Assembly (NCBI GenBank): GCA_031520405.1
Contig: GCA_031520405.1_4842.1
Source of the DNA: a phage
Length of the DNA stretch: 64,000 nucleotides
Strand: one strand, 5' to 3'
Shown here: piece by piece, positions 29,984 through 40,011 of the stretch
Numbering within the stretch: the first letter of the stretch is position 1
How the letters are laid out: the number at the start of each line of letters is the position of its first letter
Program-made: the position numbers and the translations under genes
Notes under the pieces: generated by a model
Seen by the model: only the letters and a program-made list of their open reading frames with translations
Database searches by the model: none
What the model was told of the DNA's origin: nothing

Positions 29984-30603
29984 TGGCATCGTATTTACAA
30001 GGAAAATTTATTCCCAACAATCCTCAAAAATATGTCGGAGACGTAAAAGATATCGTGTTTCGTTCCTCTTTAGAATTGGTTGCATTCAAATTCTGTGACA
30101 TGAATCCTGCTATCGTGAAGTGGGGTTCGGAAACTTGTGTAATCCCTTACATATCTCCGGTTGATGGCCGCGCCCATCGTTATTTCATGGATTTGAAGGT
30201 TTGGACTCGTCGGCAGGATTCTGATGAATTACAAATTACTCTTATTGAAATAAAACCCAAAGACCAGATTAAAGAACCTCGCAAAACTAAAACGATGAAG
30301 GAATCAACATTCAATAATTCAATGCGCACTTGGTTGGTAAATCAGGCAAAGTGGACAGCAACTAAAGAACATTGCGCAAAGGTAGGTTGGAAATTCATTA
30401 TCTGGACAGAAGAACATTTGGTGCCAGGTGAAGACCCAGAAGTTAAAAAACAATTTGCTCTTCGTTCTAAGAAAAAGCGCGAAGTCGAAATGGAAGATCG
30501 ACGCCGCGCTCAAAGGATTAATGCGTTGAAAGAGCAAATGAAGAAGGAAACTGCTAATAAACAACCAACGCAATCGGAAGATGATGGTTTGTTATTACCC
30601 TGA
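29983..30603 (+). CDS. PD-(D/E)XK-like protein, possibly gp4-like head completion protein
   Basis: YVGDVKDIVFRSS...IPYISPVDGRAHRYFMDLKVW...IEIKPK gives a D...E.K nuclease-fold pattern; GGAGGAAAG RBS; basic C-terminal tail. Confidence 0.4.
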   Translation: MASYLQGKFIPNNPQKYVGDVKDIVFRSSLELVAFKFCDMNPAIVKWGSETCVIPYISPVDGRAHRYFMDLKVWTRRQDSDELQITLIEIKPKDQIKEPRKTKTMKESTFNNSMRTWLVNQAKWTATKEHCAKVGWKFIIWTEEHLVPGEDPEVKKQFALRSKKKREVEMEDRRRAQRINALKEQMKKETANKQPTQSEDDGLLLP

Positions 30604-30813
30604 TTTCCTTGGATGTCCAGGGGCAAAGCAAGTTTGTTTGTCCCTGCATATCATCCACCCATCAGCACGGGCTTGTCTAGCACAGTCTCCCCAAGATTCA
30701 CCAGCATAAGACTTCATCCCACATCTGGGGTGATGTTCTTGCCAAGCCCAATTACAAGATTTGCATTCAACACACTCACAATACAAATCGACGGTGTATC
30801 CTGCAGTAATCAT
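30595..30813 (-). CDS. small Cys-rich protein (72 aa)
   Basis: Nine cysteines including CECVECKSC; possible zinc-binding protein. Confidence 0.35.
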   Translation of the reverse strand: MITAGYTVDLYCECVECKSCNWAWQEHHPRCGMKSYAGESWGDCARQARADGWMICRDKQTCFAPGHPRKSG

Positions 30814-31221
30814 TTAGTCACCCAGATGATCATAAATTTTTTGACGGAATTCGTTCCCTTTAGCACAACCTGTAGCCAACAGGCGAGTACCGCCCGTACC
30901 AATAACACTAATGGTCGAAAACTTCAGGATACGGCCTGTAATAGACTGGTCCACCTTAATGGTTTCTACTTTACCAAGACGGAGTTCATCAGCATCACGA
31001 CGAATAAATCCCCGTTTGACAATAACACGCTTGTTGGTGACTGCGAATTCAGTTGTCAATACATTTAAAATTGTTGGTATCAGAAATAACAAGCTGAATC
31101 CAAATGTTGGGATAATCGTTAAAATAACCAGAACATAAATCCAAAAACCGCTCCACCAAGTCGGGCGGGTGAAAGCGATGACATGTTCATTTTCGCCGAG
31201 CATGCGGTCTACATAACGCAT
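30814..31221 (-). CDS. membrane protein with bacterial PH-like (DUF304-type) domain
   Basis: Two N-terminal TM helices followed by a VTNKRVIVKRGFIRR segment typical of bPH_2 domains. Confidence 0.45.
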   Translation of the reverse strand: MRYVDRMLGENEHVIAFTRPTWWSGFWIYVLVILTIIPTFGFSLLFLIPTILNVLTTEFAVTNKRVIVKRGFIRRDADELRLGKVETIKVDQSITGRILKFSTISVIGTGGTRLLATGCAKGNEFRQKIYDHLGD

Positions 31222-31222
31222 T

Positions 31223-31744
31223 TTAATTCCTTACTTTGTCTGGGTTGGATAAGATTTGTTCGTATCCGACTTCGCCTTGATCGTCGAAAACATGCTGAAG
31301 AATCGCCATATCGTCTACCATCCGATAAACTTCAATTCCAGCGTTCATCAATTTTTTGATTCCATCCATGATACGATATGGCTCTTGATAATATACTTTA
31401 TCGATCTTGCCGTTGTCGATGATCTTCTGAGTGCAATCAGGGCATGGGCTATGTGTCACAAACATAACCAACCCTGTGAAATCATCTGCATTTTCGGGGA
31501 TACGCATTAGAGCATTTTCCTCCGCATGAATGACACACGGGTTTGTAACAATTTGCCCGTGTTGTTCCATCTCACAAACATTCGGCATGCCAGGAGGCGT
31601 TCCGTTCCATCCGATAGCCACAGGCTGATCAGTTTCAGGGTTTACGATAACACAACCGACTTGCAGACGCCGAGCATAACTGGTTACACCATATGCTGCA
31701 GCTGATCGCATATGGGCGAACATCATTCGTGGTTTGATAGCCAT
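31223..31744 (-). CDS. cd: dCMP deaminase
   Basis: Zinc-binding deaminase motifs HAEENAL and SPCPDC; 173 aa. Confidence 0.8.
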   Translation of the reverse strand: MAIKPRMMFAHMRSAAAYGVTSYARRLQVGCVIVNPETDQPVAIGWNGTPPGMPNVCEMEQHGQIVTNPCVIHAEENALMRIPENADDFTGLVMFVTHSPCPDCTQKIIDNGKIDKVYYQEPYRIMDGIKKLMNAGIEVYRMVDDMAILQHVFDDQGEVGYEQILSNPDKVRN

Positions 31745-32061
31745 TATTTTACCAGAGCCTTTTCAAGTAAAAAGATCATGTCATCCTGGTCGGCGCGGCC
31801 AAAGATCTGACCGAGTGACACCATGGAATGAACCTCTTTGACAATCAGGTCTTTGCCTGTTACACCGCTGCTGTCCAATTCGAGAATTGTAGACATGCGC
31901 TCAACCATATGAGGTGGATGATTGATATAACGTTGAAGATACTTTTCACGCAACGCAATTTTTTCGATAAGATCTGACATTTCTGCATTCTCTTCTGAAT
32001 ACAGACGTTCTTTAGATTTCAGTTCTTCGAGGCGTTCGTACATTTCTTTTAATGAAATCAT
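31744..32061 (-). CDS. hypothetical protein (105 aa)
   Basis: Start moved to the ATG with GGGAG RBS (MISLKEMY...), just downstream of a hairpin. Confidence 0.45.
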   Translation of the reverse strand: MISLKEMYERLEELKSKERLYSEENAEMSDLIEKIALREKYLQRYINHPPHMVERMSTILELDSSGVTGKDLIVKEVHSMVSLGQIFGRADQDDMIFLLEKALVK

Positions 32062-32082
32062 GTTTGTCTCTCCCAATAAATT

Positions 32083-32105
32083 AAGGGGAAGTATACCTTC
32101 CCCTT
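32083..32105 (-). terminator. hairpin terminator-like element
   Basis: aaggggaag tatac cttcccctt; flanked on the plus strand by CTTCAATAA. Confidence 0.45.
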
Positions 32106-32124
32106 TCTTCAATAACCTAAAATA

Positions 32125-32475
32125 TTATTCAGTACATGCTTTACCGAGGTCTGTAAGCCTATAGAATGTTACTTCAGACTTCGGCCAATGCTTATACTCT
32201 TCAGAGTTGTCATGAACCATTGTAAACGCAGGTTCTATCAGACCTTTAGACAACAAGGATTGACCTGAACGCGTATCCCATGGATCACCCTTTACAGAAC
32301 GAAACCCGCCAGATATCGGTGGCGCATGAAAAGTCCAAACCGTTTTCCCTTTATCGTTCGTCCAAGATTTGGGATTCAAATACCAATGACAAAGGCGTCT
32401 GGCTTCACCTTTTTCAAAATTCAACATTCCTAAAAGGACGCAGAGTTGATGTCCTGTGATGCGTGGCTTTTTCAT
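32125..32475 (-). CDS. hypothetical protein (116 aa)
   Basis: ORF from track. Confidence 0.5.
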   Translation of the reverse strand: MKKPRITGHQLCVLLGMLNFEKGEARRLCHWYLNPKSWTNDKGKTVWTFHAPPISGGFRSVKGDPWDTRSGQSLLSKGLIEPAFTMVHDNSEEYKHWPKSEVTFYRLTDLGKACTE

Positions 32476-32804
32476 AAGATCCCCAAGTCAGTAAGGTAAC
32501 GATAAAACAAGATTATAGACAGAAATACAATTAACACCCAAGACGACAGGATGGGCTTGCAATTTAGCGTAGTCTTTCCATTGGGTATGTTGGGACTTCC
32601 AGTAATAACAACCGAATCCGTTTTAGCTCTCAGCGTCATGACAGAACCCATGAGGATGATTGGGCGCACATAATGCCCTTCATGATTGCGCTTCACGATA
32701 CATGGTGAAGAAAATCGCAGGAACGGATCACCGCTTTTATAACCAAATAACTCGACCTTTTGTATTTCTTCGGGTACTTTCTGACCAGGAAAGAATATTC
32801 TCAT
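32472..32804 (-). CDS. hypothetical protein (110 aa)
   Basis: ORF from track, overlapping start/stop with neighbours. Confidence 0.45.
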
Positions 32805-33361
32805 AGCACAATTCCTAAATTTGTGTATAACAACTCAGCCAGGGTTACAGGACGCTTGAATTGTTCCCAACTGCAGTTCAGGTATTCGCGCTCTTCGCGA
32901 ATATTTTCGTGAAGATGACCATGGATATTATACGCCCAACGGTCTAATTGATAAGGAACATGTGTTGTCAACACACGGCCAACAGGCGTGTCACGTTCAT
33001 ACATAGCGCCGAAGGAGCTAATCCAGCCGTCCAGATACAGAGACAACAACATCTTAAAGCTGTCATGGTTGCCTTGTGCCACCTTGATGATAAAGTTCGG
33101 ACGCCAGTCATCGGGAACGGGGCGTCGCTTAAACTCATCAATGTTTCGCTTGGCACCCTCCCGCATCAGGCGAATGAACCCTTCAGCCCCGATGAAGCAT
33201 ATATCACCAGCCAGTTCAAGAACGTCCCGAGACTTCAACCCCTGAAAGATACTGTCAATGACCGCAGCGTCATGGGCTTCCTGTGTATCAAATCCACGCG
33301 GTTTAAAGACCTTCTTATGCCCAAGATGAGTGTCACCAAGGTGCTTTACAATTCCCGCCAT
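32801..33361 (-). CDS. calcineurin-like metallophosphoesterase
   Basis: Motifs GDTHLGH (GDxHG), AGDICFIG (GD), GNHD and IHGHLHE (GHxH) in canonical order; 186 aa. Confidence 0.65.
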
Positions 33362-33828
33362 TATGTCCTCTCCTTCTTCACGAGGTTATCATAGGCGTTC
33401 TTCAACATGGCATCCGACCAGCTAGTCCAATTGAACACATTAATCGGACTCACTCCTTTGTATAGTTCTAATATGGTTGGCGAAAGTTTGATTTCTATCG
33501 AGTTGTGGTCTTCACCTTCCACCACCGTTAACCAGAACAAATCTTTATCCAACAATTTGTGAGCAACGTGTACGTACTTGGATGCAGTTTCATCACACCA
33601 TTGTTCCAGGATTGAATACAATTCCCTTTCTATCCTCATGCGGGTCTCTGAAGAATTCGGGGTTCCGTAATAAGGGGAATTGGAATGATATGCCGTGGCT
33701 TCCTGTAAGCGTGACACCAATGGTATAGCAAAGCCAGCCTGGAACATATATTTCCAATGACTTTCAAGGGTGGAGATGATCTCGTCTCTTTCGACCTGCG
33801 ATAAGCGCATTATGGTTTCCTCAGCCAT
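33361..33828 (-). CDS. hypothetical protein (155 aa)
   Basis: ORF from track. Confidence 0.45.
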
Positions 33829-34151
33829 TCTAAAATCGGCACGTTCACAAACCCTTTATGCCAACGATGCGGTTTGTGACCTCTATTATGTTCGAGCAAA
33901 CACGTGTCTGGTGGGACACTGAAGTGGATGCCGTCGATGTCGTAGTAATGTCCGTCAATCAGAGTATACACATGACCTTCGATCTGGCTGTAATGGATCT
34001 CTGCTTGAGGATACACATGCTTCAGAACCAGAGCAACCTGATAGCACTTTCCGTTCTTCCCAACATACTCAACATCCACCTGTTGTGGGAAGACGTCTTT
34101 GATAAGATTTATCAATCTCGTGATGTCATTTACAACAACTGAACGTTTCAT
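33810..34151 (-). CDS. hypothetical protein (113 aa)
   Basis: ORF from track; His-rich. Confidence 0.45.
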   Translation of the reverse strand: MKRSVVVNDITRLINLIKDVFPQQVDVEYVGKNGKCYQVALVLKHVYPQAEIHYSQIEGHVYTLIDGHYYDIDGIHFSVPPDTCLLEHNRGHKPHRWHKGFVNVPILEWLRKP

Positions 34152-34153
34152 CT

Positions 34154-34816
34154 CTATGATAACTCATGGCGATGTCGAACACACGCAGGGCAATCACAAT
34201 TCTTTTTCAAAATTGGCAATTCACACCATGTCATTAAGTCATGTATTGGGGACATGTGATGATAGAACCAAGATTTCTTGAGACTAATCAATGGATATAA
34301 AATTTCAATAGGTCTTTCCCCGTCTCTGGTCATCATGTTGTACCCTTCAATGACTTTATTAAAGGCGGGTATCCAGTGTATTGCGTCATCGCCGTTAACA
34401 TATGCCAATATATACGTGGAAGGCAAGCTCCTGCCTTTAAATTGCGTGTTTAATAACCATATCGGGGCTTGTGCTAAACAAGAGCGAAAACCACCGTTCG
34501 GGACGTTGATGCTACTGATAGGTTCTTGATGATGTGTCCAACGATACATGAGAAGTGGGGCATTTTTATTAATCCAGTTGTGTATTTTATTCCTCGCCCA
34601 ATTTTCGCGCTTAGATTTAAATTTATTATTTTCGAGGTGGCAATACACAGTATGAACTGAATATCCTTTCGATAACAACCAAATCAACATGTATGTGCTA
34701 TCCACCCCACCAGACCAGAACAACGTCACTTCTTGATTATTCTCCGGTAATGGAGCATCCCCTTGAAGAACACGGTATACAAAATCACAATCAGATACTG
34801 AGACAACAATTTCCAT
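34154..34816 (-). CDS. QueC-like PP-loop ATPase with C-terminal zinc ribbon
   Basis: PP-loop LFWSGGVDSTYML (SGGxDS) near the N-terminus and C-terminal C-x8-C-x-C-x2-C followed by R (CELPILKKNCDCPACVRHR), as in QueC; 220 aa. Confidence 0.5.
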   Translation of the reverse strand: MEIVVSVSDCDFVYRVLQGDAPLPENNQEVTLFWSGGVDSTYMLIWLLSKGYSVHTVYCHLENNKFKSKRENWARNKIHNWINKNAPLLMYRWTHHQEPISSINVPNGGFRSCLAQAPIWLLNTQFKGRSLPSTYILAYVNGDDAIHWIPAFNKVIEGYNMMTRDGERPIEILYPLISLKKSWFYHHMSPIHDLMTWCELPILKKNCDCPACVRHRHELS

Positions 34817-35127
34817 TAAAATATTCCTCTTAAAGAATCATTTATCCTGCGCAATTCGTTTTCCACTTTTATCTTCATATTTTTATCGTCGTTCACGAAA
34901 ATCATTTTATCTAAATCTTCGCCATTAATCTTTGTATAAAAATAAATGTCATGCTCAAAGAAAATCGTTTTTCCAACAGAACGCATGGCAAAGAACGTTG
35001 CGATAGTTCTTGATAAAGGTTTGAATTTAATGGCATTGAAACGCAAAGCCTGATAGAGAGGTTTTAATGTTCCTAAGCGAATACAATGCTGGATAATTTC
35101 TTGCTCTTTCATTTTGTTGTGCGCCAT
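34816..35127 (-). CDS. hypothetical protein (start uncertain)
   Basis: Track ORF 34816..35283 trimmed to the first ATG downstream of the hairpin; no clear RBS. Confidence 0.35.
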   Translation of the reverse strand: MAHNKMKEQEIIQHCIRLGTLKPLYQALRFNAIKFKPLSRTIATFFAMRSVGKTIFFEHDIYFYTKINGEDLDKMIFVNDDKNMKIKVENELRRINDSLRGIF

Positions 35128-35159
35128 AAAGATATGATGGTACAATGATAATACATTAT

Positions 35160-35188
35160 ACAAATAGAAAAGCCCCGAAAGGGGCTTA
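35160..35188 (-). terminator. intrinsic terminator (bidirectional-looking)
   Basis: aagcccc gaaa ggggctt hairpin flanked by T-rich tracts on both strands. Confidence 0.5.
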
Positions 35189-35476
35189 TTTGTCTTCAGA
35201 TTCGTACAAACGCCAATTGCCGATGCTAAACCATTCCCCCACATTATTTGAATATCTGGTTGTTCGGACTCCTCCGACTTCATACGCCCATTTGAAGAAT
35301 TTCCATTTGGACGATAAAGAAGGACATTCGCTTCCGGATTTCAAAGAACACGCTGTGAGCCAACGCGTAATACCGAGAGCCTGAAAAATCGGATGGATAA
35401 ATGAAGAATACAATATCCAAAGCGTTATGGTAACAAAAACAATGGTCGTGATCACCCCGACAATTTGAAAGAACAT
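35186..35476 (-). CDS. small membrane protein (96 aa)
   Basis: N-terminal hydrophobic helix VGVITTIVFVTITLWILY. Confidence 0.4.
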   Translation of the reverse strand: MFFQIVGVITTIVFVTITLWILYSSFIHPIFQALGITRWLTACSLKSGSECPSLSSKWKFFKWAYEVGGVRTTRYSNNVGEWFSIGNWRLYESEDK

Positions 35477-35553
35477 TTAAGAACCTCCAAAATATTGAAC
35501 ACAGACTATGAAGAAAACTATGATTGTAAACAACCATGAAAACAAGGAAAGAA

Positions 35554-36186
35554 TCATCCTTCTACCTTCAGCCCCATCAGGTCTTCCATGGTTTTCTGAA
35601 TGCGTAGCCAGTCAAGCGCCGCATCATAACGAGGATCATGATAGACCATGCCTTCCAGTTCCCACGCCTTGATACCAGCATATCGATCCTGCTGCCCAAC
35701 ACCCTTCAGCCAGCTTACGATGTCAAATGTGTGGTGATAGTCCCAAGGTTCGTTGGAATCTTGCTTACACGTCACCTCAATGATGTGCTGAGCCTTGCGT
35801 AGGTCAAACAGATTCCTATCACACCAGTCAACCGATCGCGGGTCGATCCCAAGGCGATGGCATCCCCTGCGAATTTCATCGGCCAATTTGAAAATAGAAA
35901 TATCCTTGTCGGTCGGATATAGACTGATAGTTCGGGCGGCGTCGCACGGGTTGCGTTTACCTGTACCCAGCCACCATTCCACAGTGCCCTGGTCTTTCAC
36001 ACGGCCAAGTTCAATCTGTTCTTTGACATTCAGTTTGATAAATGTCGTGCGCTCTACAACAAGCTGCTGAAGAGTATAACGCTTGGTCAGGTCGGCGATA
36101 GTCTGTGCCCAAGACAACATGACAGCATCATCCCAACGACCGAGAGTTTCGCTATCAGCGACGGCCAAGAAATTAGATTTATACAT
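35554..36186 (-). CDS. dexA: DEDDh 3'-5' exonuclease, DexA-like
   Basis: Exo motifs FLAVADSETLG (DxE) and YHDPRYDAA (YH..D) parallel T4 DexA (IIDFETMG; AHDSIHDCA); 210 aa. Confidence 0.55.
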   Translation of the reverse strand: MYKSNFLAVADSETLGRWDDAVMLSWAQTIADLTKRYTLQQLVVERTTFIKLNVKEQIELGRVKDQGTVEWWLGTGKRNPCDAARTISLYPTDKDISIFKLADEIRRGCHRLGIDPRSVDWCDRNLFDLRKAQHIIEVTCKQDSNEPWDYHHTFDIVSWLKGVGQQDRYAGIKAWELEGMVYHDPRYDAALDWLRIQKTMEDLMGLKVEG

Positions 36187-36523
36187 CAGTTTCCCCTGCT
36201 TTCTCTAAAAGGAGTTTCAAAGGATATGTCCCACAAGCGGTGGCATACTCGACTTTGAAATATGAATTATCGTTCATGGCGAAATTGCGATGTGGGAAAT
36301 ATTCCCCGTCATCCAACCCGCCTAATCCCCCGCCGACGCGATATTGTTTTAACTCGACTTCGCCGCCATAACGGAGTTGGGCATATAGGCCGATAGGAGC
36401 GCGAACATAATGCTCCAGCCATACCCAATTTCCATCGTGTAAACGTGTAGGGATAAATGCAAAACGCACCTTGGGATGAAGAACGGCTTTGGCGAGCATC
36501 TCTTCTGTTATTTCACGCTTCAT
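36179..36523 (-). CDS. hypothetical protein (114 aa)
   Basis: ORF from track. Confidence 0.45.
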   Translation of the reverse strand: MKREITEEMLAKAVLHPKVRFAFIPTRLHDGNWVWLEHYVRAPIGLYAQLRYGGEVELKQYRVGGGLGGLDDGEYFPHRNFAMNDNSYFKVEYATACGTYPLKLLLEKAGETDV

Positions 36524-37140
36524 CCAATACCTTCCTCTTCGATGATATCTTCTTCACTAGCGACGACAGAGATTCCGTAGTCTACCATCTGGGAAAGTTC
36601 TTGTAAATCTTGTTCAAACCCGTCACCCTGTCGGATATAAAAGACGGGTACGACACGACGCCTGGTATCTTCGAAGATAGTATCCGCGATTTTATTAATC
36701 TGGCTCACCACATGAAACAGTTTCAATCCACCGATGCCACAGCCGATGGCGGGTAAACCAACATAGACTGTTTCGTCAGTTTTTGCCTCAATGATATCGT
36801 GAACTTGTTCAAACATAATCTGAACTGAACTGATAATGGAAGGCATGCGTGCGTTAGGACCAGGGTAGAACTGAGTGTACAAATTGAATCCCCAGACACC
36901 AGTGTCATGATCAAACGCATAGGACATGTTCCCCAAACGTTGTTCCGGACCACGTTCATCTAATTGGTCGGCTCGGTAAATTTCTGGGAAATCTAATCGA
37001 ACATGGTTGGCGATACCTGCGCCCATCACAGACCAACAATTTGCGCCATGAGCGAAAGCATTGATGAGATTAAAACTCGTAGCGGCTTTCAGTAAATCGC
37101 CGTTTGTGATAACATATGTGGTCATGCGTAACGTCTCCAT
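36520..37140 (-). CDS. macro domain protein (ADP-ribose binding / processing)
   Basis: YVITNGDLL, INAFAHGANCWSVMGAGIA and GLPAIGCGIGGL match the macro-domain motifs (xxGD, NAAN..G.G, G.G.G); 206 aa. Confidence 0.6.
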   Translation of the reverse strand: METLRMTTYVITNGDLLKAATSFNLINAFAHGANCWSVMGAGIANHVRLDFPEIYRADQLDERGPEQRLGNMSYAFDHDTGVWGFNLYTQFYPGPNARMPSIISSVQIMFEQVHDIIEAKTDETVYVGLPAIGCGIGGLKLFHVVSQINKIADTIFEDTRRRVVPVFYIRQGDGFEQDLQELSQMVDYGISVVASEEDIIEEEGIG

Positions 37141-37358
37141 TGTATAATTTCGTTGTTGACACAGCTAACCTGGATGATACACATATTCTGGCGATGGTCA
37201 GTGAGTGTCATAATAAAACTGTCTGTCTGTGCCATAACACAATTGACAGATATTCCTCGCATTATCAAACGAACACAGATTTCTTGATATAATCGTTTCA
37301 TGTATCCTGAAACTGAAGCGGACTCATACACGCGTTCAAATTCATATAACTCGTTCAT
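37122..37358 (-). CDS. hypothetical protein (78 aa)
   Basis: ORF from track. Confidence 0.4.
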   Translation of the reverse strand: MNELYEFERVYESASVSGYMKRLYQEICVRLIMRGISVNCVMAQTDSFIMTLTDHRQNMCIIQVSCVNNEIIQWRRYA

Positions 37359-37579
37359 TTATTCAGACCATCAATAGCGTGTTCGGAAATATATTCAACG
37401 AATTGGTTATCAGCTGCCATCTTTAAAAGTTCAAATAATTCCGTTCCAACGGTACTCCCAAACATCCCTTCCAATACACCCTGAACATCTTCATCTATTT
37501 CTTCGATGACGAGTCCATACGATTTCAGGCGGCGTGAAATAGCACGGAACTGGGCAATATCACCAATTTCATTTGCCAT
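37355..37579 (-). CDS. hypothetical protein (74 aa)
   Basis: ORF from track; acidic. Confidence 0.45.
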   Translation of the reverse strand: MANEIGDIAQFRAISRRLKSYGLVIEEIDEDVQGVLEGMFGSTVGTELFELLKMAADNQFVEYISEHAIDGLNK

Positions 37580-37628
37580 GTTATTTGTCTCATTATGGGG
37601 TTAGGCGGCAATTATACCGCCAATTTAT

Positions 37629-38042
37629 TCAATAGAGGTCTTCGGAAAAGAGTTCTTTGAAAGGAGTGTTCTTCAAACGGACCTGATTAGTTTGTCCGGC
37701 TTCACGAGCGACCACAGCGGCCTCTTCACGGGACATCCATTGCCCATAGTTATCAATAAACCCTTGTTCACGAGTGTGGGTGGTTTCGATAATACCTGCT
37801 TCCTTCAATCGTTTGAGTTGCGTGTTCATCAATTTGTCGTGATGTCGGGCGCTTACAACGATCACATCACCATATTTGTTGGCAGCAGCCACAACACGCC
37901 GATCAAACTTGGTTGGGTCAGGTATATCACGAGTATACAAGGCGATGTGAGTGTCGTCCACGTCCCCTTTCACCTCAGAATATAACTGACACCCATTAGG
38001 AGATCCAGTAGGTAAAGAACGAAAATATCCAAGTAATTTCAT
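37629..38042 (-). CDS. hypothetical protein (137 aa)
   Basis: ORF from track. Confidence 0.45.
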   Translation of the reverse strand: MKLLGYFRSLPTGSPNGCQLYSEVKGDVDDTHIALYTRDIPDPTKFDRRVVAAANKYGDVIVVSARHHDKLMNTQLKRLKEAGIIETTHTREQGFIDNYGQWMSREEAAVVAREAGQTNQVRLKNTPFKELFSEDLY

Positions 38043-38045
38043 AAT

Positions 38046-38405
38046 CTAATCTATCCATATTTCAGGTTCGGGGATATCAACCATCTCCACCGTTTGATTC
38101 TTTAATTCGTGGAAACAGTCACCAAGGAATTGTAATTTACCATCAGTCAAGAACAAATGACAACGACTCGCCGGATCAGAATGATTCACCAACAGACTAG
38201 GAGTGAAAGTCGGTGATTCGAGATCGTGATTCCATTGCCATATTGGGCCAGGCATTTGCCCTGAAATGCGATAAGGATGAAGCATATTACATCCAGGACA
38301 ATGAAAATATATGGAACCACCCATTGATAATAATTTTGGAGTCAATAATTTTGACATATCACGCCTCCACTTCTTCATCAGGATTGTATGGGTGTAATTC
38401 TCCAA
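38046..38405 (-). CDS. hypothetical Cys-containing protein (start uncertain)
   Basis: HCPGC ... C..H pattern suggests metal binding; the 5' end overlaps the upstream gene. Confidence 0.4.
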   Translation of the reverse strand: MENYTHTILMKKWRRDMSKLLTPKLLSMGGSIYFHCPGCNMLHPYRISGQMPGPIWQWNHDLESPTFTPSLLVNHSDPASRCHLFLTDGKLQFLGDCFHELKNQTVEMVDIPEPEIWID

Positions 38406-38637
38406 TTAACTTAGGGAATAATGCGAATCCAAATAAATTAAATGAACGCATGGTGCCAACCATACCCACTTCATCCGATTCGGTTACATCAGAAAGAGCG
38501 CAAAGAGGTATCCATAAATCTTGTTGGCCTTCATGATTGACAAAAGCAACTTCCTCTTTAATAAAACGAGGGCATAAGATATCGAACAACCAATAGAAGA
38601 AAGTCAGCAATGAGAGACTGCGGAAATATACAAACAT
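38359..38637 (-). CDS. small membrane protein
   Basis: Start set to the ATG with AAGGGG RBS (MFVYFRSLSLLTFFYWLF...); hydrophobic N-terminus. Confidence 0.4.
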   Translation of the reverse strand: MFVYFRSLSLLTFFYWLFDILCPRFIKEEVAFVNHEGQQDLWIPLCALSDVTESDEVGMVGTMRSFNLFGFALFPKLIGELHPYNPDEEVEA

Positions 38638-38679
38638 GGTGAACCCCTTGCTTGTTTGGAGGGAATTCACCCTCCGGAT

Positions 38680-40011
38680 TTATAGGCCCAATGCCTTTTC
38701 AAGATCATCTAAATCTTCAGTATAAAGATCGATGTCTTGCTTATTATTTAATTCTTCTCGTTGAACTTCTAAATTCTTTATCTGGTTCAACAAACGTTCA
38801 CGGGCATCTAGTGTAATTGATGATAAAGACATCTTGAATAAATCATCGAGATCGCCATCAAAATCAGGATAGTCTGTCTGGAATAACGCTTTCAGTTCCG
38901 TGAGGCTCCGGCGCATATCTGTAACGACAGCCCACCCAATGAATATGGCACGATTGTTCAAACGGTGTATTTTGTCGGTCAATTCCTTGATAAGATACTG
39001 ACGTCTATCTTCATAGCGACTCAGGCGATAATTGAAAAATGGAAGCAACATATCTTTCCAACCATCGTAACGGTGAATAACACCATCTTCATCCCAAGCT
39101 GTCCACACGGGCTTATTAGCTGAGTAGAGACGGAACATCTGTTCAACCTGTTCGTCATTCAACTTAGACAATTCACCCCGCTTGAATACAACAGTGATAT
39201 CCCAACCATCTTCGGTCGTATCGTTGGCGTACTCAGTGAGGACACCCGCCTTGTACAGAGGCAACAGCACTTTGGTCTCATAGGTTTTAGAGAACCAACC
39301 AATAGGAACCTCGGTGATGTTCAAAGTGGTTGCATTAACGCGGGTGAACAATCCACGACTGTATGCTCTTCCTTCCTCAGTATAGCCTGTCTCTCCTTTG
39401 AAACCATTCCAGTACGGTTTTAAGTCCTTCGGGTCTTCGCCACGGAGAAGTGCTCTCAGGGCACTGAGCACGGACTTAACGCAGTGGCATGGGGTGTCGG
39501 TGGCATAACCCGAGCCGATACCATTGATACCATTCACGAGAAACATGGGCAGGATGGGTAAAAAGAATTTCGGCTCCAGTTTCTCTTCCCCAAGATAATT
39601 GTATTCCAATATCCCATCGTCCTCCTTTCGGAAGATCTTACGGATAACTTCAGACACTGCCACTGAAATATAACGAGCGGAAGACGCTTCGCGCCCCATG
39701 ATTGAACCAAACTGTCCGTCGCGGTCAAAGTATGGGATGTTATTCGTACCTGGGAACCCCTGAGCCATGTTCACGATCGTACCGCTCATGTTCTCACCAC
39801 CGGATTTGTAATTCGTGCGAGCGGCGGCGAACATGCCAAGGCGGTCAACAATCTCCTCCTTGTTGTATTCAAGAGCAGCAAAGAGTATCTTACGCTGGCT
39901 TGGCTTCAGGCTGTCAATCAGCTGAGGGATTTGACGGATGCTGTTAACCACGGAAAACTCTTTATGATCCCCGTTGATAAATTCTGTTACGGTAATACTT
40001 TTAGCAACCAT
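38680..40011 (-). CDS. 52: DNA topoisomerase II medium subunit (gp52, GyrA-like)
   Basis: LIDSLKPSQRKILFAALE, DGQFGSIMGREASSARYISVAVS and FLPILPMFLVNGINGIGSGYAT parallel T4 gp52; start set at the ATG just after the stop of the large-subunit gene (AGGA RBS). Confidence 0.85.
   Translation of the reverse strand: MVAKSITVTEFINGDHKEFSVVNSIRQIPQLIDSLKPSQRKILFAALEYNKEEIVDRLGMFAAARTNYKSGGENMSGTIVNMAQGFPGTNNIPYFDRDGQFGSIMGREASSARYISVAVSEVIRKIFRKEDDGILEYNYLGEEKLEPKFFLPILPMFLVNGINGIGSGYATDTPCHCVKSVLSALRALLRGEDPKDLKPYWNGFKGETGYTEEGRAYSRGLFTRVNATTLNITEVPIGWFSKTYETKVLLPLYKAGVLTEYANDTTEDGWDITVVFKRGELSKLNDEQVEQMFRLYSANKPVWTAWDEDGVIHRYDGWKDMLLPFFNYRLSRYEDRRQYLIKELTDKIHRLNNRAIFIGWAVVTDMRRSLTELKALFQTDYPDFDGDLDDLFKMSLSSITLDARERLLNQIKNLEVQREELNNKQDIDLYTEDLDDLEKALGL

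Follow-up and report, generated by a model that had tools for sequence, protein, structure and literature searches.

A single open reading frame (ORF) occupies positions 34154-34816 on the minus strand of a 64,000-nucleotide stretch of phage DNA (NCBI GenBank assembly GCA_031520405.1, contig GCA_031520405.1_4842.1), hereafter called the window. The ORF begins with ATG and encodes 220 amino acids; the plus-strand translation of the same interval is riddled with stop codons. We describe here the product of this gene, a QueC-like PP-loop protein of the phrog_1550 family, which is probably an adenylate-forming enzyme from a phage-specific branch of the QueC superfamily, with a substrate other than a 7-deazaguanine. 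The same 663-nucleotide coding sequence (CDS) is annotated for the QueC-like gene of phage KE28. The start codon overlaps the stop codon of the upstream ORF in the sequence TAATG, and 2 nucleotides separate the stop codon of the QueC-like gene from the start of the next gene.

The original prediction, made from the letters of the window alone, was of an orphan QueC-like enzyme in a T4-like phage. Its second part has to be revised. The window is 98.9% identical to Salmonella phage ST-W77 and likewise matches about 100 other records over most of its length, and the annotated relative KE28, which is 98.8% identical, belongs to the Ackermannviridae, subfamily Cvivirinae, genus Kuttervirus. From these identities we assign the source to a ViI/CBA120-like Kuttervirus and not to a T4-like phage, though its replication genes are T4-like.

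Two motifs had suggested the link to QueC, the 7-cyano-7-deazaguanine (preQ0) synthase. The SGGxDS PP-loop is indeed present in the 220-residue protein, as SGGVDS at residues 35-40, within the segment LFWSGGVDSTYML (residues 32-44). A C-terminal zinc motif had been given as C-x8-C-x-C-x2-C-R; the spacing of its cysteines is correct, but the arginine does not directly follow the last one, as V213 lies between them, and the motif in full reads C198-x8-C207-x-C209-x2-C212-V-R214. Its second spacer is one residue shorter than in the C-x8-C-x2-C-x2-C of QueC. In the wider family the canonical CGxCxxC form is found, and CxCxxC is the Kuttervirus version. The four-cysteine (Cys4) cluster is presumably a structural zinc site. 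Table 1 gives the positions of these and other elements.

Table 1. Elements of the QueC-like gene and its product, with their positions in the window
Feature	Position	Strand	Remarks
CDS, QueC-superfamily PP-loop ATP pyrophosphatase (phrog_1550), 220 aa	34154..34816	-	Stop codon included; ORF list and phrog_1550 match
Shine-Dalgarno-like AGAGGA	34825..34830	-	8 nt upstream of the QueC-like ATG; read from the sequence
PP-loop SGGVDS, residues 35-40	34697..34714	-	Predicted ATP alpha/beta-phosphate binding loop; aligned with QueC and Cap9 PP-loops
Family motif N63-N64-x2-K67-x3-E71	34604..34630	-	At the position of QueC YxQxHxxE; Glu alone in common
Family motif R111-x2-L-x-Q116-x-P-x-W120	34457..34486	-	At the position of QueC VPxRN; alignment to 3bl5
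Family motif Y139-V-N-G-D143-D144-A145	34382..34402	-	D143 aligns with the conserved QueC Asp; QueC YPDC falls in a gap
K180-K181	34274..34279	-	K181 aligns with the conserved QueC Lys (K165 in E. coli) and the Cap9 Lys (PF(x)4K)
Cys4 motif C198-E199-x7-C207-x-C209-x2-C212	34181..34225	-	Presumed structural zinc site as in QueC; initial 'CE' common to Cap9

We compared the protein with relatives in three alignments comprising 21 homologues, 50 diverse family members and the 9 most distant sequences. Among the 21 homologues about 30 columns are invariant, including G36, G37, D39, S40, C207, C209, C212 and columns of the N63-N64-x2-K67-x3-E71 motif, and S35 and C198 are nearly so. In the 50-member set, N63 and N64 are at least 90% conserved and E71 is invariant. 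In the most distant sequences, residues S35 to S40 are invariant save V38, and Q116 is invariant even there; K181 is invariant in all three sets. Over these three sets, which reach progressively further from the window protein, the SGGxDS loop, D143, K181 and the Cys4 motif show no variation or next to none. The glutamate that follows the first cysteine, where QueC has a tyrosine, is likewise invariant in the family.

Selection points in the same direction. The ratio of non-synonymous to synonymous substitution rates (dN/dS) against a ViI-type orthologue is 0.03 at a dS of 1.26, with a range of 0.03-0.37 over the comparisons made, and the gene is intact in 193 of the 196 phage records that carry it; it is therefore real and under selection. 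Since so many residues are invariant or nearly so in the 21 homologues and purifying selection is strong, the PP-loop and cysteine motifs are not chance occurrences. One could still view the locus as a spurious ORF or as the relic of an enzyme that no longer catalyzes anything (a pseudoenzyme), in keeping with the 'hypothetical' label of many records and with the fact that no function or phenotype has been reported. We give this view an almost negligible probability in the face of an intact PP-loop, the invariant columns, the low dN/dS, a good Shine-Dalgarno sequence with a start translationally coupled to the upstream ORF, and a family of hundreds of divergent clusters; in addition, one peptide of the orthologue gp66 of phage Sajous1 was retrieved once by mass spectrometry (PMC10892097).

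General profile models place the protein only loosely. Pfam QueC matches with 23.9 bits (gathering score 22) over residues 33-76, that is, the PP-loop only; Pfam ThiI, with a cut-off of 20.5, reaches 22.2 bits, and tRNA_Me_trans matches weakly. With 18.4 bits, the NCBIfam QueC equivalog TIGR00364 stays far below its cut-off of 150.3 and matches residues 33-58 only. The sole strong profile match is phrog_1550 (E 1.4e-81, residues 1-219), whose name, 'QueC-like queuosine biosynthesis', is an annotation label and not a demonstrated function. A profile built from the 50 family members, however, aligns end to end and with the zinc motif included both with QueC (3bl5, E 8e-10) and with Cap9 (PDB 9NTO, E 3e-9), and hhalign gives a probability of 96.9% over 176 columns against a canonical phage QueC. 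QueC is also the second-best match in a fold search. By fold and profile, the nearest relatives are judged to be QueC and Cap9. The end-to-end alignment identifies the protein as a true homologue of these two and not of the tRNA thiolases, an outcome that agrees with the original prediction, which had named placement in such a family as grounds for giving up the QueC-like assignment.

The ThiI score and the weak tRNA_Me_trans match could also suggest an RNA-base modifier of the ThiI, MnmA, TtuA or TilS type, with the tRNA of host or phage as its target, and BFVD lists one structural neighbor under the name 'tRNA(Ile)-lysidine synthetase N-terminal domain'. These matches span the common PP-loop half only, while QueC and Cap9 score higher and align over the entire protein. 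Furthermore, the 220 residues include no THUMP, PUA or other RNA-binding domain and no conserved catalytic cysteine beyond the Cys4 cluster, ARAGORN finds no tRNA gene in the 64-kb window, and the genomic context is one of DNA replication. A role in tRNA modification is in our view quite unlikely.

Homology to QueC does not extend to its substrate motifs. Canonical QueC (PF06508 cluster 1) is characterized by SGGxDS, YxQxHxxE, VPxRN, YPDC and C(x)8CxxCxxC, and mutagenesis of the E. coli enzyme has shown Y35, R99, Y131 and Y189 to be essential in vivo (PMC13329287). What the phrog_1550 family has in common with QueC is SGGxDS, the aspartate (D143), the lysine (K181), the C-terminal Cys4 and homology over the full length; YxQxHxxE, VPxRN, YPDC and the tyrosine after the first cysteine are all missing from it. 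In the profile and hhalign alignments, YxQxHxxE is replaced by N63-N64-x2-K67-x3-E71, with the glutamate alone kept. VPxRN gives way to LxQxPxW, in which the essential arginine (R99) becomes the invariant Q116. YPDC falls in a gap of the hhalign alignment after Y139-x-N-G-D-D-A and occurs nowhere else in the protein, and the 'CY' at the first cysteine of QueC becomes 'CE'. The family consensus (WSGGLDSTY, NN..K..RE, L.Q.P.W, GYVMNDDAIS, FPL.K..K, TWCE...CGxCxPC) displays the same arrangement. The alignments depict an enzyme whose ATP-activating half is kept and whose substrate half is rebuilt.

A genuine QueC would convert host-made 7-carboxy-7-deazaguanine (CDG) to preQ0, which a host transglycosylase or an unrecognized one of the phage would then insert into DNA or tRNA. 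Enterobacterial hosts make CDG, and the PP-loop with its C-terminal Cys4, the Pfam QueC score just over the gathering score and the second rank of QueC in the fold search would all fit. Yet the score of TIGR00364 is far below its cut-off, the essential Y35, R99, Y131 and Y189 have no counterparts (PMC13329287), and the activity would be redundant because the host already has a QueC. The remainder of the pathway is also missing. As the original prediction had observed, there is no QueD, QueE, FolE or TGT/DpdA in the window: tblastn with the DpdA, FolE, QueD and QueE proteins of phage 9g found none there, nor in four loci covering the whole KE28 genome (best E 0.09-10), and the PHROG-based annotation of KE28 lists no DpdA/TGT, FolE, QueD or QueE gene. 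In a control, all phage 9g queries recovered themselves. None of the four was found within +/-8 kb of a family member in 79 viral loci (1.2 Mb) either.

The composition of virion DNA points away from deazaguanines as well. Besides dA, dG, dC and dT, liquid chromatography-mass spectrometry (LC-MS) of DNA from ViI, CBA120, CBA6 and 1.255.O detected only one further peak, that of 5-NeOmdU, a base standing in for about 40% of T; no deazaguanine peak was present in ViI-like DNA (PMC5889632). A role for the QueC-like gene in making 5-NeOmdU was considered and rejected: lysates with gp67, gp160, gp226, gp243 and gp247, five other products of ViI, reconstitute 5-NeOmdU in vitro (PMC5889632), and the individual steps of the pathway have since been assigned (PMC8989533). 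The pathway leaves no place for the QueC-like gene, ViI-like DNA holds no unexplained abundant base, and the published data leave room for rare modifications only. With the QueC motifs absent, TIGR00364 far from its cut-off, no DpdA, and LC-MS revealing 5-NeOmdU only, the suggestion that the protein acts on a host-supplied 7-deazaguanine, with DpdA encoded elsewhere, loses its footing, and we consider a genuine QueC very improbable. In the reading we prefer, the protein is neither a preQ0 synthase nor a remnant of the 7-deazaguanine pathway. That this gene is an orphan was already noted in 2019 by Hutinet et al., who considered it likely to belong to another subfamily of N-type ATP pyrophosphatases (PMC6884629). 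Literature searches on a PP-loop enzyme in the Ackermannviridae and on phage DNA-modifying PP-loop enzymes turned up nothing specific, and a 2026 survey of PF06508 does not treat the viral branch.

On contigs L019 and L043, a second QueC gene lies some 7 kb from the phrog_1550 member. In L019, from an uncultured phage, the canonical QueC and phrog_1550-branch pair lies at L019:423-1220 (+) and L019:8001-8579 (+). This canonical QueC has every QueC motif (FNYGQKHKVE, VVPNRN, YPDC and CGKCGSC); no other part of the deazaguanine pathway is seen in the 16 kb of L019 covered. Standing together on one contig, canonical QueC and the phrog_1550 member are distinct, non-redundant paralogues.

When 1.84 billion representative proteins, clustered at 50% identity, were searched with the family profile, 1425 were matched at E<=1e-3 and 639 at E<=1e-10. 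Most matches are about 200-300 residues long and extend over the whole domain; in longer members (300-435 residues) the QueC region alone is matched, and no fused domain was detected. Of 50 members sampled, every one matches phrog_1550 and 48 give a weak match to Pfam QueC. Among cultured phages, carriers are all sampled Ackermannviridae, Pawinskivirus (HPP-Temi), jumbo phages of Ralstonia, Burkholderia and Pseudomonas, and Bacillus phage SP-15; no T4-type phage was found among them. IMG/VR adds 94 relatives, many on contigs of 100-370 kb. A cellular scan over one genome each for 185,579 species yielded 2 loci. At the sensitivity of that scan, the family appears essentially phage-only; absence from cells is limited to this sensitivity because one narrow peptide pattern was used. 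The sole clear cellular copy, on chromosome OW818669.1 (L087:7896-8582, +), is isolated. Beside it are a large WD40/caspase-like protein and two IS3-type transposase pairs that are identical to each other, and the copy looks like a stray insertion of mobile DNA and not an operon member.

To characterize the genomic context of the family, we clustered ORFs from 79 loci, 65 of them from outside the Ackermannviridae. An SNF2 helicase gene adjoins the QueC-like gene in 44 of these 65 loci, and in 37 the gene lies directly upstream of a 1200-residue family B DNA polymerase (PolB), with a NUDIX gene further downstream. Among cultured phages, the PolB of the main uncultured lineage finds no close match. 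In other lineages the gene is found, in varying order, among genes for RecA/UvsX, a DnaB-like helicase, a 5'-3' exonuclease, a gp32-like single-stranded DNA-binding protein and an Mre11-Rad50 fusion. It stands just after the DNA polymerase in SP-15, by DprA-like, dCTP deaminase and NAD-ligase genes in HPP-Temi, and between gp46/47 and ligase in Vibrio phage YC. According to the KE28 annotation, the Kuttervirus gene is part of a minus-strand block with rIIA/B, topoisomerase II subunits, a MazG-like gene, the DexA exonuclease, a phosphoesterase and dCMP deaminase; a ligase gene is also near. No partner gene is conserved across lineages, and an adjacent 120-residue ORF is limited to one of them. 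RNase H is a further neighbor in large phages. The consistent context, in phages that differ greatly, is a module for replication, recombination and nucleotide metabolism.

Many relatives carry an acidic tail beyond the zinc ribbon (median pI 5.2, against 7.6 for the core), although isoelectric points of core and tail did not settle the question of nucleic-acid binding. A motif Q[LM]x[LIFM]xF recurs in 22 of 53 distinct tails from outside the Ackermannviridae, where shuffled sequences predict 0.11 (maximum 2 in 500 shuffles); examples are PYQLSLDFD, QLEFEF, QLIFDF* and QMSFAF*, the asterisk marking the end of the protein. Each neighboring gene family has at most one match. A looser pattern is found in 13 of 147 representative tails against 3.05 expected. 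The motif appears in independent 50%-identity clusters, at times at the very C-terminus; bearers include contigs L082 (ORF ending at ~8516 plus tail), L050, L055 and L038 and proteins P0056, P0107, P0052, P0102 and P0163. Bacterial proteins bind the sliding clamp through QL[SD]LF or QLxLxF motifs, and T4 has clamp-binding 'LDF' tails. The tail motif appears to resemble the former and, more loosely, the latter.

The protein of the window ends in ...RHRHELS, without the tail of many relatives, so the motif bears on the family and not directly on the Kuttervirus gene. Metagenomic relatives that are 60-65% identical (P0002-P0014) run 7-15 residues past this C-terminus (...HELSVFEGKL, ...HELSIFEQRVSN), and the Salmonella Kuttervirus protein stops directly after HELS. 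We considered the 'ELSVFE' extension as a degenerate clamp motif and dropped it: it is not conserved across the Ackermannviridae, 'HELS' is helical in the structure model, and the window protein is without the extension.

These tails raise the question of whether the enzyme may be tethered to the replisome, altering nascent DNA, rarely or at specific sites, or a replisome protein. Such a role would agree with the finding that unrelated lineages of phages have the gene next to genes for polymerase, helicase and recombination, with the excess of the tail motif over expectation and its recurrence in independent clusters, and with the likeness of this motif to the bacterial clamp-binding motif. 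We nevertheless find it rather unlikely, given that the window protein lacks tail and motif, that the single non-canonical peak of ViI-like DNA is explained without the QueC-like gene (PMC5889632), and that the motif counts are not independent because many bearers come from one lineage. A bolder and still speculative proposal, to which we give only a small chance, would make phrog_1550 as a whole a replisome-associated adenylating enzyme of large phages, many members being recruited by a clamp-binding-like QLxLxF tail. Working at the fork, the enzyme would modify newly made DNA, a precursor nucleotide or, by analogy with the nucleobase-protein conjugation of Cap9 and QatC, a protein of the replisome, and the Kuttervirus protein would be a tail-less member performing the same chemistry. 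If true, this would couple a new enzymatic activity to the replication of phage DNA.

The reading we prefer, with a probability of roughly 0.6, is that the gene encodes a catalytically competent, zinc-containing, adenylate-forming ATP pyrophosphatase of a phage-specific branch of the QueC superfamily, which acts on a substrate other than a deazaguanine and serves replication or nucleotide metabolism. QueC, Cap9, NAD synthetase and GMP synthase, all N-type ATP pyrophosphatases, share a chemistry in which adenylation is followed by attack of a nitrogen. By analogy with these four, the PP-loop would bind ATP and a carboxylate or carbonyl oxygen of the substrate would be adenylated with release of pyrophosphate; ammonia, an amine or an amino terminus would then act as the nitrogen nucleophile, taking the acyl or imidoyl group and displacing AMP. 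The pocket has been rebuilt, with N63/N64/K67, Q116/W120 and Y139/N141/D144 at the sites of YxQxH, VPxRN and YPDC in QueC, which points to a substrate other than 7-carboxy-7-deazaguanine. The gene would be expressed with the early/middle module of replication, recombination and nucleotide metabolism. From its place within that module, and from the same analogy, we infer as the most likely substrate a metabolite akin to a nucleotide or nucleobase, or else a part of the replication machinery. The original prediction had also offered amidation of a different carboxylated base or nucleotide, and action on another carboxylated or carbonyl substrate is possible as chemistry.

Several observations weigh against this adenylation scheme. 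While the fold, the kept ATP and zinc motifs, the missing QueC substrate motifs, the restriction to phages and the genomic context are established by the analysis, the proposed chemistry is drawn entirely from analogy. The AlphaFold2 model is least confident precisely at the zinc loop (residues 200-205, pLDDT <50). Synteny may partly reflect inheritance in large phages with T4-like replisomes and not functional coupling, and because of this partly shared ancestry the genomic context is supportive but not decisive. Finally, whatever is deduced from the tails may not transfer to the tail-less protein of the window.

The immediate surroundings of the gene in the window, a region rich in small ORFs and called early, offer few further clues. 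Pfam searches with the ten flanking ORFs matched only two families. The gene immediately downstream (33810-34151, -) encodes a 'Phage YunG-like protein' (PF24591, E 8e-44) and, two genes past it, 32472-32804 (-) encodes a DUF7618 protein (E 8e-52). Each belongs to a conserved phage family and shares its operon-like block with the QueC-like gene. Upstream, gene models differ: overlapping ORFs of 155, 96 and 85 residues stand at 34816-35537 (-) of the window, where KE28 is annotated with short CDSs of 98, 57 and 84 residues. These genes have no Pfam match, and one is translationally coupled to the QueC-like gene. The window shares with KE28/ST-W77-type phages an interval, 33371-33807 (ORF 33361-33828, minus strand, 155 residues), that S118/SFP10-type Kutterviruses lack. 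Identity to the S118-type is 99% over 33808-39000 and about 87% over 30019-33370. This drop, together with the presence or absence of the ORF, places a mosaic boundary at ~33808, the downstream end of the YunG-like gene.

As a claim about DNA chemistry, the original prediction is mostly deflated, as nothing we found points to a new base in the DNA of these phages. The label 'QueC-like queuosine biosynthesis' invites the false inference of 7-deazaguanine DNA in Kutterviruses, which the finding of a separate branch corrects. What is new is the invariant pocket of the family, its restriction to phages and its size, its constant replication-module context and the clamp-like tail motif of relatives. 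Together, these features describe a large family of conserved enzymes, with hundreds of clusters at 50% identity, that is kept in the replication modules of large phages.

Other N-type ATP pyrophosphatases are more remote. ThiI, TtuA/NcsA, TilS, LarE, NAD synthetase, GMP synthase, YcfA and the nitrile synthetase ArtA have lower structural scores and sequence matches limited to the PP-loop, and they either have no QueC-type Cys4 ribbon or carry additional RNA-binding, dimerization or Fe-S elements that are missing here. Cap9 is much closer, sharing with the phrog_1550 family a compact single-domain architecture, the 'CE' that opens the zinc motif and the PL..K motif. It originates, however, from type IV CBASS defense, whereas the phrog_1550 family is encoded by phages and not in defense islands. 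Cap9 is encoded next to a CD-NTase and Cap10 (TGT-like) and keeps Y/FxQ(x)5E, RN and H(x)4YxDC motifs for 7-carboxy-7-deazaguanine (PMC13329287). None of these substrate motifs is conserved in the alignment to 9nto_B; neither CD-NTase nor Cap10 is among the Kuttervirus neighbors, and the genome has no TGT-like gene.

QatC, in which the substrate site is remodeled while SGGxDS and a variant zinc motif are kept (PMC13329287), shows the same pattern as the phrog_1550 family and provides a precedent for repurposing the QueC scaffold. It differs in its length of about 400 residues, as against 220 for the window protein, with N- and C-terminal extensions and a motif set of its own, and in being encoded with qatA, qatB and qatD. 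PADLOC yields no QatC match for the window protein, and no qatA, qatB or qatD is found among its neighbors. Kinship with Cap9 and QatC suggests that the phage protein may attach a small acid to the N-terminal end of a protein, whether of the phage or of its host, or act as a decoy that interferes with type IV CBASS or QatABCD. The 'CE' start shared with Cap9 (PMC13329287) and the place of the gene in an early region of small ORFs would be consistent with this, and enzymes of the QueC family are now known to modify the N-termini of proteins. CBASS 'QueC' is also the sole PADLOC defense-model match, reaching 26 bits with the window protein and, full-length, 45 bits with relative P0042. We hold this alternative to be fairly improbable, considering that all Cap9 substrate motifs are missing (PMC13329287), QatC is not matched, no partner gene is conserved across lineages, the Kuttervirus neighbors, apart from a YunG-like protein, are without a Pfam match, and a constant position in replication modules is atypical of anti-defense genes. 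With Cap9 and QatC, the QueC scaffold has been repurposed twice for protein-nucleobase conjugation in immunity. If the non-deazaguanine enzyme that we favor exists, phages may have repurposed this scaffold a third time, on their own side, which would interest the fields of nucleic-acid modification and phage replication alike.

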